Assembly (NCBI GenBank): GCA_017554485.1
Contig: JAFZIG010000041.1
Coordinates: 7,128-71,127 of the forward strand
Direction: 5' to 3'
DNA from: Acidaminococcaceae bacterium
GTDB taxonomy: Bacteria > Bacillota > Negativicutes > Acidaminococcales > Acidaminococcaceae
DNA: 64,000 bases
Under the pieces are notes generated by a model, which had not been told where the DNA came from, ran no database searches, and was given only the letters and a program-made list of their open reading frames with translations. The position numbers and the translations under genes are program-made. Below are positions 35,685 to 41,115 of the stretch, in pieces (positions within the stretch are counted from its first letter, which is position 1; each line of letters begins with the position of its first letter).

Positions 35685-36101
35685 TTAATAAATTTCTTCC
35701 GGTTTAAAGAAATTTTTGATTTCCCGTTCCGCAGCTTCCGGGCTGTCGCTGCCATGGATTACGTTTTCGCCTTTATCCAGCGCAAAATCGCCGCGGATGG
35801 AACCAGGTGTGGATTCGATGGGGTCGGTCACGCCCATCATAGTACGGATGGCTTTAATGGCGTTAGGACCTTCCACAATCATGGCTACCAGCGGACCGCC
35901 GGTAATGAAAGCTTCCAGTTCCGGGAAAAACGGTTTATCAACATGCTCTGCATAATGATATTTAGCCTGATCTTTCGTCATAACCAACATCTTCAGCGCG
36001 CAGATCTTTAAACCGCGGCGTTCAAAACGGGCAATGATCTCGCCGATCAAATGCTTGCGTACTCCGTCGGGTTTTACCAATACCAATGATTTCTGATCCA
36101 T
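35685..36101 (-). CDS. ndk: nucleoside diphosphate kinase (start revised to 36101)
   Basis: [32 protein letters not shown]. Confidence 0.97.
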
Positions 36102-36247
36102 GTTTTTCTCTCCTTTAAAAATAATATTGCTTTGCAAAATGTATCAATCCGGGCAATAACCCCGGTATGAATCATAATAAATAACTGCTATATCAGGTAA
36201 ATCGCCAGTTTGAAAACCAGGAATAGTAATTATGCTATCAGTTATAA

Positions 36248-37123
36248 TTATTTTTCCAGCTTGCCCTGCCGTTTCATTTCTTCAGCCTGCCTGCGCAGCA
36301 GCGCTACGCGTTCCTCGGTAGAAGGATGAGTGCTGAACAGTTTCTGCATATCCTTTGCGCTGAAAGGACACATAATAAACATATGGGCTGTAGCTTCCGT
36401 GGCATTGCGCATGGTCCGGCGGGTCGAGTACTGAGAAATTTTTTCCAGCGCATCCGCCAGATAATTCGGGTTACCGCACAAGGCACCGCCGCCTTCATCT
36501 GCTTTATACTCGCGGCTGCGGGAAACCGCCATCTGGATCAGGGCTGCCGCAATAGGAGCCAGTATCAGTAACAGGATAGACGCAATGGGATTGCTGTTAT
36601 TCCGGTCACGGCTGCCGCCGCCAAACCATAATGCAAACCGGGAAACCGTAGTAATAACGCCGGCCAGGCTGGCCGCTACGGTACTGATGAGGATGTCACG
36701 GTTTTTAACGTGGGTCATTTCATGGCCCAGCACGCCTTCAATTTCTTTTGGGGAAAGATAATTCATCAATGCCGTGGTAACAGCCACAGCAGCATGCTCC
36801 GGGTTACGGCCGGTTGCAAAGGCGTTAGGCACCTGATCGTCTATGATATACACTTTGGGCATGGGCAGGTTCGCCCGCTCTGCCAGCCGTTTTACAATAC
36901 CGTATAAGGCCGGCGCGGAATTCTCATCCACCTGATGGGCCTTATACTGGGACAACACCATTTTATCACTGTTCCAGTACGTGAAAAAATTCATGGCCAG
37001 GGAAAAGATAAGCATGATCAGCATGCCTTGCTGGCCTCCGGCAAAATCGCCTACCATGACCAGAAGCAGGGTCATCAATGTCATTAAAAACGCTGTTCTC
37101 ATAATAACAAACACACTCCTCAC
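36248..37123 (-). CDS. htpX: zinc metalloprotease HtpX (M48)
   Basis: PNAFATGRNP, HEMTHVKNRD, SRSREYKAD, FSTHP. Confidence 0.95.
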   Translation of the reverse strand: MRSVFVIMRTAFLMTLMTLLLVMVGDFAGGQQGMLIMLIFSLAMNFFTYWNSDKMVLSQYKAHQVDENSAPALYGIVKRLAERANLPMPKVYIIDDQVPNAFATGRNPEHAAVAVTTALMNYLSPKEIEGVLGHEMTHVKNRDILISTVAASLAGVITTVSRFALWFGGGSRDRNNSNPIASILLLILAPIAAALIQMAVSRSREYKADEGGGALCGNPNYLADALEKISQYSTRRTMRNATEATAHMFIMCPFSAKDMQKLFSTHPSTEERVALLRRQAEEMKRQGKLEK

Positions 37124-37245
37124 AACAAATTTATGCCGCTGAACGATCCCTGAAAAGAATGATTATAATTATTTTAAGTTCCCGGCAAAAAGAATTTTTG
37201 GTTATCATTGAGATAATTATCTAAATTATTATAACAGACTTTATC

Positions 37246-37680
37246 CTATTTTTCAATTTCTCCTTTTATGGCCTGCAGCATATCTTCGCTGTTCTCCCTT
37301 ACCTTGCGGATCAGGATGGGGTTCAAAAGTCCGGCGATCATGGGAATGCCGAATTCAAAATCCACAGCCAGGGAAACATTGACACCATCCTCTGTGTCCA
37401 GCAACTCCCAGGCGCCTTCCATCTTTTTCAGGTCCCCTGCAGTCTGCTTATACGTTATCTTAAAAGTTTCCGGGTAAAAGTCATCCCGTTCAGTCCAGAC
37501 GATCTTTCTCCCGTCTACGTTGGAGATCCAGTGGGAAATGTCGTAATTCTCACCTTTCTCCAGCACATCCACGCTGACCAGATTCTTCATAAATTTAGGA
37601 TAGGAGGCCATATCCTGTATCACATCAAATATTTTTTGTTTTTCACCTTTAATCACAATCTCTGACTTTACAAACGGCAT
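37246..37680 (-). CDS. SRPBCC / polyketide-cyclase (START-like) domain protein (start revised to 37680)
   Basis: DMASYPKFM, W.E.D, GDLKKMEGAW, FEFGIP..LLNP; about 145 aa. Confidence 0.85.
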   Translation of the reverse strand: MPFVKSEIVIKGEKQKIFDVIQDMASYPKFMKNLVSVDVLEKGENYDISHWISNVDGRKIVWTERDDFYPETFKITYKQTAGDLKKMEGAWELLDTEDGVNVSLAVDFEFGIPMIAGLLNPILIRKVRENSEDMLQAIKGEIEK

Positions 37681-37769
37681 ACAAATTCCTTCTCTCAAAT
37701 TCAAAAAATAAAGTAACAATCTATGTTAAAAAAGCAAATCAAAAATTATGCACTATGAATGAAACATCC

Positions 37770-39011
37770 TTACAAATCGTCAATGGCGTCTGCAACCTGT
37801 TTAATGCAGCTTTGCAATACTTCCAGCACGTGGTCAACTACAGATATCGGCATGATCAGCGGCGGTTCGATCCGGATCACTTTAGGATTGTTCAGCGTGT
37901 AGGCAACAATGATATGCTGATCAATCATTAAGGCCATCAGCATACCGCCGGCGCCCTCTTTTGCCAAATCCATGCCGATCATCATGCCGCGGCCGCGAAC
38001 CTCTTTGATGACCTGGGGAAATTCTTTGGCAATAGCATCAATACCTTTCTTAAAATAAGCACCTGTTTCCGCGCTGCGCTGCAGCAGGTTCTCTTCTTCT
38101 ATCACCTGCAAAGTCGCCAAACCGGCCGCGCAGGCCATCTGCCCGCCGCCGAAGGTTGAGGTGTGCAGGAAAGGCGCCTCAATCAGTCCCTTCCATGCAG
38201 CTTCCGTACCGATCACGGAACCGATGGGCATGATGCCGCCACCCAAAGCTTTGGCCACCGCCATAAGATCCGGTTTGGCTCCGTCGTAGTCCACTCCGAA
38301 CCAGGTTCCGGTACGGCCGATACCGGTCTGAACCTCATCGGCGATCAGCAGCGCCCCATGCTTATGGGCAATAATTTCCGCCTGCTTCATGTATCCGTCA
38401 GCCGGAACATTGATGCCGCCTTCCCCCTGAACAGGTTCCAGGATCACAGCTGCCGTATCTTTATCCACAGCCGCTTCCAAAGCAGCCACATCGTTATAGG
38501 GAACGTGCACAAATCCATCCAGCAGCGGTTTGAAAGGATCCCGGTACATGTCCCGTCCGGTTGCCGTTAAAGAGCCGAAGGTCTTACCATGAAACGCATT
38601 ATGGGCCGCAACAAACCTTTTGCGTCCGGTAGCCAGCCGTGCCACTTTCAGACAGCCTTCCACCGCTTCCGTACCGCTGTTGCAGAAAAAGTTGTACTGC
38701 AGATCGCCGGGCGTGATCTCAGCCAGCTTTTCCGCCAGCAGAGCAGCCGGTTCGTTAAACAACACCTTGCCGCACATGGGCATGTTGTGTAATTCCCGTT
38801 CCACTGCTTCCACGACCTTCGGATGCTTATGTCCTACCGCAAACATGCCGAAACCGCCCAGGCAGTCAATAAATTCCTTGCCCTCTGTATCGGTTATAGT
38901 CCAACCTTCCGCACGGGCCTCAACGCTTGAAAGTCCCATAAAACGGAACAGCCGTGTGGAAGAAGGATTGATATATTGTTCATATTTCAGCATAATCTCT
39001 TCCGGATTCAT
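37770..39011 (-). CDS. class III PLP aminotransferase, putrescine aminotransferase (PatA)-like (start revised to 39011)
   Basis: IDCLGGFGMFAVGH, FFCNSGTEAVE, AFHGKT, EPVQGEGG, DEVQTGIGRTG, VAKALGGG. Confidence 0.9.
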   Translation of the reverse strand: MNPEEIMLKYEQYINPSSTRLFRFMGLSSVEARAEGWTITDTEGKEFIDCLGGFGMFAVGHKHPKVVEAVERELHNMPMCGKVLFNEPAALLAEKLAEITPGDLQYNFFCNSGTEAVEGCLKVARLATGRKRFVAAHNAFHGKTFGSLTATGRDMYRDPFKPLLDGFVHVPYNDVAALEAAVDKDTAAVILEPVQGEGGINVPADGYMKQAEIIAHKHGALLIADEVQTGIGRTGTWFGVDYDGAKPDLMAVAKALGGGIMPIGSVIGTEAAWKGLIEAPFLHTSTFGGGQMACAAGLATLQVIEEENLLQRSAETGAYFKKGIDAIAKEFPQVIKEVRGRGMMIGMDLAKEGAGGMLMALMIDQHIIVAYTLNNPKVIRIEPPLIMPISVVDHVLEVLQSCIKQVADAIDDL

Positions 39012-39051
39012 AATGCCTCCAAACAAATATAATCTTCTGTTGAATGATTGT

Positions 39052-39636
39052 TTATTCCTCTTTTGTACGTTTGGGAATATCCCTATCCCGGTTGTTCATG
39101 TTACCGTGATGAAAGAAGAATATAGTATCCGTAGTAAAATTCCGTTCCGCATCTTTACCGGATTTCACAGCAATTCCCAAGTCCAGACGCCAGGCTTCCA
39201 TCCCGTGCCATTTAGATTTTTGTTCATTTATGTATTTTACATCTGTATTCTGCAGGTGTTCCTGTACCCAAAGGGATGCTCCATCCAGTTCCGTAGTGAC
39301 GGGAACACCGACAGCAACTTCCCTGTCAGTCCATACGACATCGGCTCCCGACACTTCCAACAGGTCTCTATGTTCACGTCGGCCAGAGTCCCTCAGCTGC
39401 CAGTTCTCACGTTTCAGTAGCAGTATATCATCCACGATCCTGTGGGCCATTTTTGATTCTTCACTAAGATCAAACGATTTAACCGTGGTATCTGACAGGT
39501 CTTTGGGTTTTTCCTGCGTTCTGGAAGCATAAAAGACCCCGGCAGCCCCTGCCAGCAAAAGCAATATTAAAATAAATAAAATAAAGATTCCCAAGCCGCC
39601 TTTCTTGCTTTCATGGGAACGGTTGCTGTCCTGCAT
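39052..39636 (-). CDS. hypothetical single-pass membrane protein
   Basis: N-terminal TM helix after KKGG; RBS GAGGGG; lies between xerD and the aminotransferase. Confidence 0.7.
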   Translation of the reverse strand: MQDSNRSHESKKGGLGIFILFILILLLLAGAAGVFYASRTQEKPKDLSDTTVKSFDLSEESKMAHRIVDDILLLKRENWQLRDSGRREHRDLLEVSGADVVWTDREVAVGVPVTTELDGASLWVQEHLQNTDVKYINEQKSKWHGMEAWRLDLGIAVKSGKDAERNFTTDTIFFFHHGNMNNRDRDIPKRTKEE

Positions 39637-39663
39637 GTGCAGCCCCTCTTTTCCGCACCCTGT

Positions 39664-40551
39664 CTATTTGCGCGGATGCGCTTTCTCATAAACCGAACGC
39701 AGCCTTTTATTAGTCAGGTGCGTATATATCTGTGTTGTAGAAATATCGGCATGACCCAGCATTTCCTGCACACTCCGCAGATCCGCTCCGTTATCCAGCA
39801 GATGTGTAGCAAAAGAGTGACGCAAGACATGTGGAGAAATTGTTTTTGATATTCCAGCCTGCCTGCCATATTGCTTGATAATCTCCCAGACACGCTGCCG
39901 AGTCAGTCCCTGACCCCCCAGTCCTAAAAACAGGGTTCCCGGATCATTCTCATCCTTCATTAAAAACGTGTTTCTCGCTTCCGTAATATATCGCTGCAGG
40001 TATTCTGCCGCCACGCTTCCCAGGGGGACAATCCGTTCCTTGGAGCCCTTGCCGAAGGCAATCACGTAACGCATGGGAATATTGACACTGGCAGTTTGTA
40101 CAGTAACAAGTTCTGAAACACGCATCCCCGTAGCGTATAACATCTCAAGCATCGTACGGTCCCGCAGCCCTTCTGCGGTCGAAAGATCAGGGGCTTCCAG
40201 CAGGGCCAGTACTTCTGCTTCTGTCAGGACTTTGGGCAGATGTACTCCCTTGGTCCCCGCCTCAACCGCTTCCGCCGGATCCGCCTGCAGATAATTCTCC
40301 GTGATCATAAAGCGGTAAAACGCCTTGATCGCCGCCAGCTTCCGGGCTATGGTAGCCGCAGCCCTGCCCTGCAGTTTCAGCTTCGTAATGTAACCGATGA
40401 TCTGTGAACGCTGCACTTCCGCCAGTTTGTCTTCCGAAACGGAAAGAGCCTTGCAGAAGATCCGCAGATCCCGCTGATAGGAAAGCTGGGTATTGTCCGA
40501 AAGACCAAGCTCTACCTGCAGATATTCCATAAATAATGCAAGATAATCCAC
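39664..40551 (-). CDS. xerD: site-specific tyrosine recombinase XerD
   Basis: LEMLYATGMRVSEL, GKGSKERIVP, SPHVLRHSFATHLLDNGADLRSVQEMLGH..TTQIYTH. Confidence 0.92.
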   Translation of the reverse strand: MDYLALFMEYLQVELGLSDNTQLSYQRDLRIFCKALSVSEDKLAEVQRSQIIGYITKLKLQGRAAATIARKLAAIKAFYRFMITENYLQADPAEAVEAGTKGVHLPKVLTEAEVLALLEAPDLSTAEGLRDRTMLEMLYATGMRVSELVTVQTASVNIPMRYVIAFGKGSKERIVPLGSVAAEYLQRYITEARNTFLMKDENDPGTLFLGLGGQGLTRQRVWEIIKQYGRQAGISKTISPHVLRHSFATHLLDNGADLRSVQEMLGHADISTTQIYTHLTNKRLRSVYEKAHPRK

Positions 40552-40683
40552 GCTTTCACTCTCCCCGGTTCTCCTGTCCGTTCCTTAACGCTGTAATATG
40601 CTGCTATTTCTTCTTCCCTGTTTTGTGTTACTCTGACATAAAAGTACACGCCGCAATCTTCATGATGCTCCCCTCAAAAAAGA

Positions 40684-40712
40684 AAAACAACGCATAAGCG
40701 CTGTTCTTCTTT
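40684..40712 (-). terminator. terminator after hfq
   Basis: Minus strand AAGAACAGCGC-TTAT-GCGTTGTTTTT followed by CTTTTT. Confidence 0.65.
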
Positions 40713-40725
40713 TTTCACAGCAACC

Positions 40726-40989
40726 CTAGTCTTTCTTTTCCGCTTTTTCCGGCTGCATAATGGTAATATTGGCGATCGGAGAAATGGTGGAAACCGCATG
40801 CTTATACACCAGCTGCTGTTTGCCGTCATTTTCAATGATAATGGTAAAATTATCAAAGCCGCGGACCAGGCCCCGGATCTGGAAACCGTTTACCAAATAA
40901 ATAACTACCGCCAGGTTCTCCTTGCGGACATGGTTCAGAAAGCTATCCTGCAGATTCATCAATGCTTTAACGTTTGTTGTATTTGTCAT
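40726..40989 (-). CDS. hfq: RNA chaperone Hfq
   Basis: [38 protein letters not shown]; follows miaA. Confidence 0.96.
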
Positions 40990-41115
40990 GCTCTCCAGCT
41001 CCTTTTATATCTTTCTTCCTAAAAACTTATTGATCATCTTTTAATTCAAAAACAAACCTGATTTAATTTTACTTCTTCCCAGTTAGTATCTTAAATTTTA
41101 CAACCTTTTGCCATA

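Follow-up and report, generated by a model that had tools for sequence, protein, structure and literature searches.

The closest described systems to the genes studied here are bacterial pigment enzymes that convert a thioester through an aldehyde into a primary amine. TamH of Pseudoalteromonas tunicata, which acts in tambjamine YP1 biosynthesis, is a PatA/PigE-like transaminase fused to a thioester reductase homologous to the acyl-acyl carrier protein (ACP) reductase AAR, and it makes a fatty amine (PMC9594044). PigE of the MAP (2-methyl-3-n-amyl-pyrrole) pathway of Serratia prodigiosin biosynthesis (PDB 4ppm, NCBIfam NF053554) is likewise a single polypeptide. In Streptomyces albus, a stand-alone thioester reductase, TabE, and a stand-alone omega-transaminase, TabA, make the fatty amine of tambjamine BE-18591 (bioRxiv 2025.08.11.669332). 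The enzyme chemistry is already known from PigE and TamH, and from TabE/TabA with a different reductase family; what we did not find described, in the literature that we searched, is a core-genome split form with two dedicated, highly conserved partner proteins. We describe it from a 64,000-nucleotide stretch of a rumen Succiniclasticum genome (Acidaminococcaceae, Negativicutes; assembly GCA_017554485.1, 94% complete; contig JAFZIG010000041.1, positions 7,128 to 71,127), which is called the window below. The genus was assigned from the sources named for proteins almost identical to those encoded here. In this window, the gene of a 413-aa PatA/PigE-like class III (omega) aminotransferase (AT, 37770-39011, minus strand) is directly followed by the co-oriented gene of a 144-aa SRPBCC/START-fold protein (SRPBCC, 37246-37680, minus strand), as had been claimed in the original prediction made from the sequence of the window. 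With moderate confidence, we read AT and SRPBCC as one functional unit, the branch that carries out the amination in a split route of the PigE/TamH type from thioester to aldehyde to amine, the other branch being a reductase (RED) with its partner UNK316, both encoded elsewhere in the genome.

At the level of the genes, the likeness to PigE and TamH consists of a class III transaminase together with an NAD(P)H thioester reductase carrying a catalytic Cys, a set suited to the conversion of a thioester through an aldehyde to a primary amine. AT corresponds to positions 377-734 and RED to positions 1-355 of the one PigE protein. AT scored 403 bits against NF053554 over model positions 377-734, far under the PigE equivalog cut-off, and matched 4ppm with an E-value of 1.9e-84. 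A search of the whole genome for an acyl-ACP or acyl-CoA reductase, which the original prediction had named as a check, was positive. RED is a 354-aa protein on another contig (C114:23317-24378), which matched the PigE model over positions 1-355 with 217 bits, residues 50-355 of the N-terminal domain of 4ppm with an E-value of 1.9e-34, the cyanobacterial AAR model TIGR04058 with 117 bits and the AAR structure 6jzq with an E-value of 1.9e-24. The Cys of its motif CFACMAET aligns with the catalytic Cys294 of AAR and its nucleotide-binding loop reads GASGSIGS. RED is a sequence homologue of AAR that keeps Cys294, but the aldehyde-deformylating oxygenase that partners AAR is not found here. Whereas PigE and TamH are each one polypeptide encoded in a pigment cluster, AT and RED are separate proteins on different contigs and in housekeeping or core-genome contexts, and SRPBCC and UNK316 have no counterpart in PigE or TamH. 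TabE and TabA resemble RED and AT in being two separate enzymes; however, TabE is aldehyde dehydrogenase/LuxC-like and not AAR-like, and the system is encoded in a secondary-metabolite cluster that supplies its own ACP and thioesterase.

An SRPBCC orthologue was present in 32 of 41 related genomes, and AT lay directly upstream of it in 31 of these 32, the sole exception being a genome of 72% completeness in which the match was partial. When one genome per species was scanned, with an alignment of seven SRPBCC sequences as query, 80 loci were obtained from Negativicutes, Sumerlaeota, Symbiobacterium, Thermincola, Heliorestis, Frackibacter (Halanaerobiales), Carboxydocellales and many other Bacillota, with AT directly upstream of SRPBCC in 74 of them across a gap of 12-200 nt (median 28). 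The six exceptions were two loci at contig ends, one metagenome-assembled genome (MAG) whose AT and SRPBCC genes fall on separate contigs (L068, genome G324) and three loci without a nearby AT (L037, L038, L040), whose neighbours, an SNF2 helicase, ACT/DUF5612 and KduI, were uninformative. Of a further 201 genomes, 21 were SRPBCC-positive; 20 of these and none of the rest had the orthologous AT (E-value of 1e-129 or better), which was adjacent to SRPBCC in 18 of the 21 and within 1.7-3 kb in two. The Negativicutes pair sits in a long syntenic block (mutS-mutL-miaA-hfq-xerD ... htpX-ndk), the sporulating Negativicutes have different upstream genes (spoIVA, hom, thrB and a GNAT gene) with the pair still present, and the flanks vary among 38 non-Negativicutes loci, where they included a GT4 glycosyltransferase in 12 loci, a 755-aa membrane protein in 9, a fumarylacetoacetate-hydrolase family protein in 11, an S-adenosylmethionine (AdoMet) decarboxylase family protein in 13 and ndk in 9. 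Shared synteny falls far short of accounting for this conservation; gain and loss of AT and SRPBCC go together, and the two are an inseparable sub-unit. The claim that they form a conserved unit was borne out across phyla (31/32 relatives and 74/80 loci), so that the lack of conservation that the original prediction had named as speaking against it is not what we found.

The presence and absence of SRPBCC and RED agreed in 39 of the 41 relatives. Among 301 Negativicutes, 102 genomes had both genes, 184 had neither, 5 had SRPBCC only and 10 had RED only, and both were missing from four genera inside Acidaminococcaceae and from ten other families. In the 201-genome sample, RED was present in all 21 SRPBCC-positive genomes versus 108 of 201 overall. 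The RED-only genomes lacked both AT and SRPBCC and had at most a 475-aa PatA-like paralogue. UNK316 lay directly upstream of RED in five distant carriers of the pair (Sumerlaeota, Thermincola, Symbiobacterium, Heliorestis and Frackibacter), and AT, SRPBCC and RED were contiguous in one Bacillota MAG (L096). We take the pair and the RED locus to belong together because they represent the two halves of PigE, because they co-occur, also in distant carriers, and because one MAG holds them contiguously. The pattern is nested and not symmetrical, so that the pair appears to depend on RED while RED has a role of its own.

AT carries the motif IDCLGGFGMFAVGH and matched Pfam Aminotran_3 with 342 bits. 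It is publicly annotated as putrescine aminotransferase, and its closest solved relative is E. coli PatA (YgjG; 4uox, E-value of 2e-111). The best NCBIfam model was putrescine aminotransferase NF008570, with a score of 454 bits that stays under the cut-off of 612, and the score against the PatA equivalog TIGR03372 was 394 bits, under the cut-off of 659. An assignment to the acetylornithine aminotransferase ArgD (TIGR00707) was rejected, since the score was 370 bits versus a cut-off of 410 and the ArgD-like paralogues, at about 40% identity, fall in a clade of their own. A quick maximum-likelihood tree joined the pair-linked ATs, E. coli PatA and the 475-aa paralogue class in one supergroup, apart from the ArgD-like paralogues (Shimodaira-Hasegawa-like approximate likelihood ratio test, SH-aLRT, 100); it gives no firm order of branching inside this PatA-like group and does not tell whether E. 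coli PatA belongs to the pair-linked clade or stands next to it.

The active site was read against the structure of PatA (PMC4244111; 4uox) in 73 AT orthologues. The alignment to PatA indicates that the catalytic and pyridoxal phosphate (PLP) residues K254, D225, Q228, E197 and R380 are retained in AT. Common to AT and PatA are the PLP site with its catalytic Lys, an Asp that stands at the pyridine nitrogen, a Glu-Arg pair (Glu243 and Arg426 in PatA) and, at the hydrophobic entrance, Phe327 and Leu419. Lys183 of PatA, which stands in place of the carboxylate-binding Arg of ArgD, OAT and GabT, is kept in 72 of the 73 orthologues. In PatA, Gln119 contacts the far amino group of putrescine and Tyr402 closes over the site (PMC4244111). 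Most AT orthologues differ from PatA at both positions and at Phe91: the Gln119 position is Lys in the window AT and Lys, Arg, Glu or Gln in 41, 22, 9 and 1 of the orthologues, the Tyr402 position is Gly in 72 of the 73 including the window AT, and the Phe91 position is Phe in the window AT and Tyr in 67 of the 73. The window AT is also about 36 residues shorter than PatA at the N terminus, and E. coli patA has no SRPBCC neighbour. We also observed a second PatA-like aminotransferase class of about 460-490 aa, 44-48% identical to the window AT, which forms its own clade (L207-L210 and L217, from other Negativicutes genomes). It occurs in genomes that have RED and lack the pair, and 14 of 15 such genomes in the 201-genome sample have RED; this class may be an alternative partner of RED.

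SRPBCC matched the Pfam family Polyketide_cyc PF03364 with 61 bits (cut-off 23) and PF10604 with 41 bits. Its AlphaFold2 model (mean predicted local distance difference test, pLDDT, 93.9) has a helix-grip fold, a beta-sheet with a long C-terminal helix. The best fold match was the START-domain protein TTHA0849 of Thermus thermophilus HB8 (2d4r), with a template modelling (TM) score of 0.94 and a root mean square deviation of 1.2 Å over 141 residues; the folds are near-identical but the sequence identity is only 24%. TTHA0849 was also the best PDB sequence match (E-value of 1.5e-16) and the closest solved relative by a wide margin. Its internal pocket is given as very small, about 18 cubic angstroms, in a 2026 review of bacterial START proteins (PMC13525633), which contains no mention of an aminotransferase. 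Among longer SRPBCC homologues (268-482 aa), no fused RED or AT domain was found. SRPBCC is publicly annotated as RatA toxin, COQ10 or aromatase/cyclase. These assignments were tried and rejected: the RatA/PasT/Coq10 model NF007999 gave 31 bits versus a cut-off of 258, and the type II polyketide aromatases/cyclases ZhuI, TcmN and WhiE-VI matched in fold (TM 0.79-0.89), but ketosynthase and ACP genes were not found in the examined loci. The public names for SRPBCC and for AT are probably misleading.

RED lies in the gene order tilS-hpt-ftsH-birA-coaX-dus-UNK316-RED-greA-lysS, with UNK316 (C114:22353-23303) directly upstream. UNK316 had no sequence match in Pfam, NCBIfam or the PDB, and its mean column identity between phyla is 66%, with the conserved motifs ERxGTDGD, DGSGLKNTLER and GRSFGTNV. 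Its predicted fold is AAR-like: the best VIA-align match of the model (pLDDT 84.7) was AAR, with Z 15.3 over 248 residues at 10% identity, followed by the AAR-like terminal amidation domain (TAD) of carmabin biosynthesis (PDB 9e4s; bioRxiv 2024.10.28.620694) with Z 12.9, the remaining matches having Z of 9.8 or less. Foldseek gave no clear fold for the same model (TM 0.48 or less). In the UNK316 alignment no Cys is invariant, and a glycine-rich nucleotide loop cannot be recognised; lacking the invariant Cys, UNK316 is not a reductase of the AAR mechanism. RED directly followed UNK316 in this genome, in 6 of the 10 distant genomes that were checked and in 54 of the 80 metagenome loci found with UNK316. 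It was missing from at least 14 UNK316 loci with room downstream, so UNK316 may work with other partners as well.

In the proposed pathway, RED would reduce an acyl-ACP or acyl-CoA to the aldehyde through a Cys-bound acyl intermediate. The PatA-like AT, with PLP and an amino acid donor, would then turn this aldehyde into a primary amine, and SRPBCC would bind the aldehyde or amine, being reactive or poorly soluble, and pass it on, with UNK316 assisting RED. We infer the supply of the aldehyde by RED, the carrier role of SRPBCC, the role of UNK316 and the hydrophobic nature of the substrate. Amination of an aldehyde, rather than degradation of putrescine, is most likely because the pair is conserved across phyla and occurs almost only in RED-positive genomes. 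The predicted active site of AT is consistent with it, having the Lys of PatA in place of a carboxylate-binding Arg, a hydrophobic entrance and Gly at the position of the lid residue Tyr402. The whole genome contained one weak partial match to Aldedh (57 bits) and no PatD-like (gamma-aminobutyraldehyde) dehydrogenase, so that an onward route from an aminoaldehyde is lacking. By analogy, a substrate with a hydrophobic chain is favoured by the fatty-acyl AAR-type reductases, by the PatA-like entrance without the carboxylate-binding Arg and by the START fold of the partner. Of the lipid-amine or envelope-diamine module proposed originally, the amination of an aldehyde in the manner of PigE and TamH gained from the presence of RED in the genome and from the near confinement of the pair to genomes with RED. 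The envelope-diamine role was not supported, since the pair was found in 0/74, 0/51, 0/15 and 0/9 genomes of four large Negativicutes families, yet it occurs in monoderm Firmicutes and in Sumerlaeota.

Several observations weigh against the split route. RED is far more widespread than the pair, 87 of the 108 RED-positive genomes in the 201-genome sample being without it, and RED must therefore have a role that does not need AT. AT or SRPBCC lay within 6 kb of UNK316 in none of the 80 metagenome loci, and the pair and RED loci are unlinked in nearly all genomes. Both sit in long syntenic housekeeping blocks, and the counts come from relatives that are not independent, without phylogenetic correction; part of the co-occurrence may reflect shared ancestry and joint loss in reduced genomes. 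A gene for an ACP or an acyl-activating enzyme adjoining either locus was not found. The Thermincola-type 755-aa protein has no homologue in this genome, and the GT4 protein has only a weak match (55 bits). The pocket reported for TTHA0849 fits a long acyl chain poorly. This last point suits a rather doubtful alternative, in which RED and AT would carry out the same chemistry on a small polar thioester, for example a dicarboxylyl- or aminoacyl-thioester, to give an omega-amino acid or a polyamine precursor, with SRPBCC as a small-molecule chaperone or cyclase. The high conservation of all four proteins across phyla, which would suit a universal small metabolite, speaks for it, as does Lys or Arg at the Gln119 position in 63 of 73 orthologues; in addition, 13 of 38 non-Negativicutes loci and one Sporomusa-like genome have a gene of the AdoMet decarboxylase family close to the pair. 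However, Glu at the Gln119 position in nine orthologues means that this residue is no fixed determinant, the carboxylate-binding Arg of ArgD, OAT and GabT is replaced by Lys as in PatA, neither AdoMet decarboxylase nor spermidine synthase co-varies with the pair, with spermidine synthase missing from Succiniclasticum, and the characterised AAR-type reductases (AAR and TamH) act on fatty acyl thioesters.

Less probable still is an ordinary putrescine or cadaverine aminotransferase for polyamine turnover or envelope diamines, with SRPBCC handling a cyclic imine or merely being co-transcribed. E. coli PatA is both the closest solved and the best NCBIfam match of AT, most substrate-site residues of PatA are kept, and the pair-linked ATs belong to the PatA supergroup apart from the ArgD-like paralogues; but both PatA equivalog cut-offs are missed, AT differs from PatA at Gln119 and Tyr402, a PatD-like dehydrogenase is missing from the genome and no transporter lies nearby. 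The scores below cut-off, the two changed substrate-site residues and the missing dehydrogenase agree with the original prediction in arguing against putrescine catabolism. The distribution of the pair among the Negativicutes families, the monoderm Firmicutes and Sumerlaeota also stands against diamines, and such a role leaves the confinement of the pair to RED-positive genomes unexplained. We regard it as very improbable that the adjacency is mere conserved synteny or co-transcription of genes with no common pathway, with SRPBCC as a Coq10/RatA-like or a general lipid or stress protein. The Negativicutes pair does lie inside a long housekeeping block and the public annotations point to such proteins; the adjacency nevertheless outlasts a complete change of both flanks across phyla, the two genes are gained and lost together, and the RatA model is missed by far. 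Ubiquinone is not expected in these strict anaerobes, which counts against a Coq10-like role.

The gene order around the pair is mutS, mutL, methyltransferase, miaA, hfq, xerD, the gene of a 194-aa protein, AT, SRPBCC, htpX, ndk and a PduO-type adenosyltransferase. No aldehyde dehydrogenase or transporter was among the annotated neighbours, in line with the original remark that neither an aldehyde dehydrogenase nor a polyamine transporter was nearby. The likeliest start of AT is the ATG at 39011 behind GGAGG, the longest open reading frame beginning 15 nt upstream at TTG 39026, and that of SRPBCC is the ATG at 37680, with the purine-rich GAGAGAAGGAATTTGT 5' of it. The 89-nt spacer between the two genes (37681-37769, minus strand) carries this ribosome-binding site and contains no terminator-like site or Rfam match; no Rfam match was found in the window from 36000 to 41000 either. 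AT and SRPBCC are predicted to be cotranscribed as one unit. A weak promoter-like site just 5' of AT (39026-39054, minus strand; TAAACA-17-TATATT) matches the consensus at 9/12 positions only, and read-through from xerD and the 194-aa gene into AT is as possible as an AT promoter of its own. A strong promoter-like site with an extended -10 (TTGAAA-17-TGnTATAAT, 11/12) overlaps the SRPBCC stop codon (37228-37256, minus strand); it would drive htpX independently and probably marks the downstream limit of the unit.

The 194-aa membrane-anchored protein upstream of AT (39052-39636, minus strand) represents only the N-terminal half of a divergent polysaccharide deacetylase of YibQ-like type; relatives have in its position a 393-444-aa protein with Pfam PF04748 in the C-terminal half. 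The short form, without the catalytic domain, is kept at 70-81% identity in seven Succiniclasticum species and the long form is found in three. The conservation of the short form across species indicates a retained domain loss and not a fresh pseudogene. Sporulating Negativicutes and other phyla have no such deacetylase-type gene upstream of the pair, and the 194-aa gene probably does not belong to the AT-SRPBCC unit.

Neighbouring genes outside the Negativicutes showed two further arrangements. In Sumerlaeota and relatives (L026, L028, L030, L035 and L071) and in L036, L045 and L073, the AdoMet decarboxylase family gene stands 1-4 genes downstream of the pair, and in Sumerlaeota it belongs to a tight same-strand string with genes for a fumarylacetoacetate-hydrolase family protein, ThiF, an amidinotransferase/DDAH-like protein, argininosuccinate lyase and a class I/II aminotransferase. 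A polyamine link was rejected for the Negativicutes, where AdoMet_dc was found in 39 of 41 relatives with or without the pair and spermidine synthase does not track the pair. Succiniclasticum has a single weak AdoMet_dc family gene (about 58 bits; C49:2009-2320 in this genome) and no spermidine synthase; this gene could be a pyruvoyl ornithine/arginine decarboxylase comparable to neofunctionalised SpeD homologues. In Thermincola, Symbiobacterium, Carboxydocellales and related MAGs (L036, L039, L042, L043, L049 and L073), the pair is followed by the GT4 gene and the gene of the 755-aa protein, which has no clear Pfam family and only weak DUF7144 and SLATT_4 matches; two of these loci have an L,D-transpeptidase with PG-binding domains and CorA upstream of the pair.

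One candidate product of the split route is a long-chain alkylamine for lipids of the N-glyceroyl alkylamine type. A tentative and rather unlikely idea is that UNK316, RED, AT and SRPBCC provide this amine for N-glyceroyl alkylamine phosphoglycolipids. Thermus and Deinococcus are long-established sources of these lipids. Their occurrence in Thermus is documented (PMC9636437). According to a 2026 paper (PMC13274423), which cites Bale et al. 2025, they were recently reported in Bacillota, and the same paper lists such compounds in Moorella thermoacetica. In favour of this idea, the closest solved relative of SRPBCC is a Thermus protein, and the GT4 and large membrane proteins beside the pair in some Bacillota, like the YibQ-type deacetylase in Negativicutes, would suit the assembly or trimming of a head group. 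Against it, this genome has no clear homologue of the GT4 or the 755-aa protein and has the deacetylase gene only in truncated form. Moorella did not appear among the named sources of the homologues. No paper naming the genes for the alkylamine was found in the literature searched.

Only pigment pathways are known to use the chemistry that leads from a thioester through an aldehyde to an amine, and here it would lie in the core genome of many anaerobic bacteria. In this genome the gene set is divided over two housekeeping loci, and the distribution of the pair is nested within that of RED. If the product is a fatty amine, the four genes would be candidates for the alkylamine lipids that Thermus, Deinococcus and some Bacillota make, a first biochemical context would be gained for TTHA0849 and the START proteins of its family, and the presence or absence of the genes could predict which gut and rumen Negativicutes make the lipids. 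If the lipid reading is true, amine lipids would be made by carriers such as Succiniclasticum, Phascolarctobacterium and the Sporomusa group, and not by the Acidaminococcus-like genera or the large Negativicutes families without the genes.

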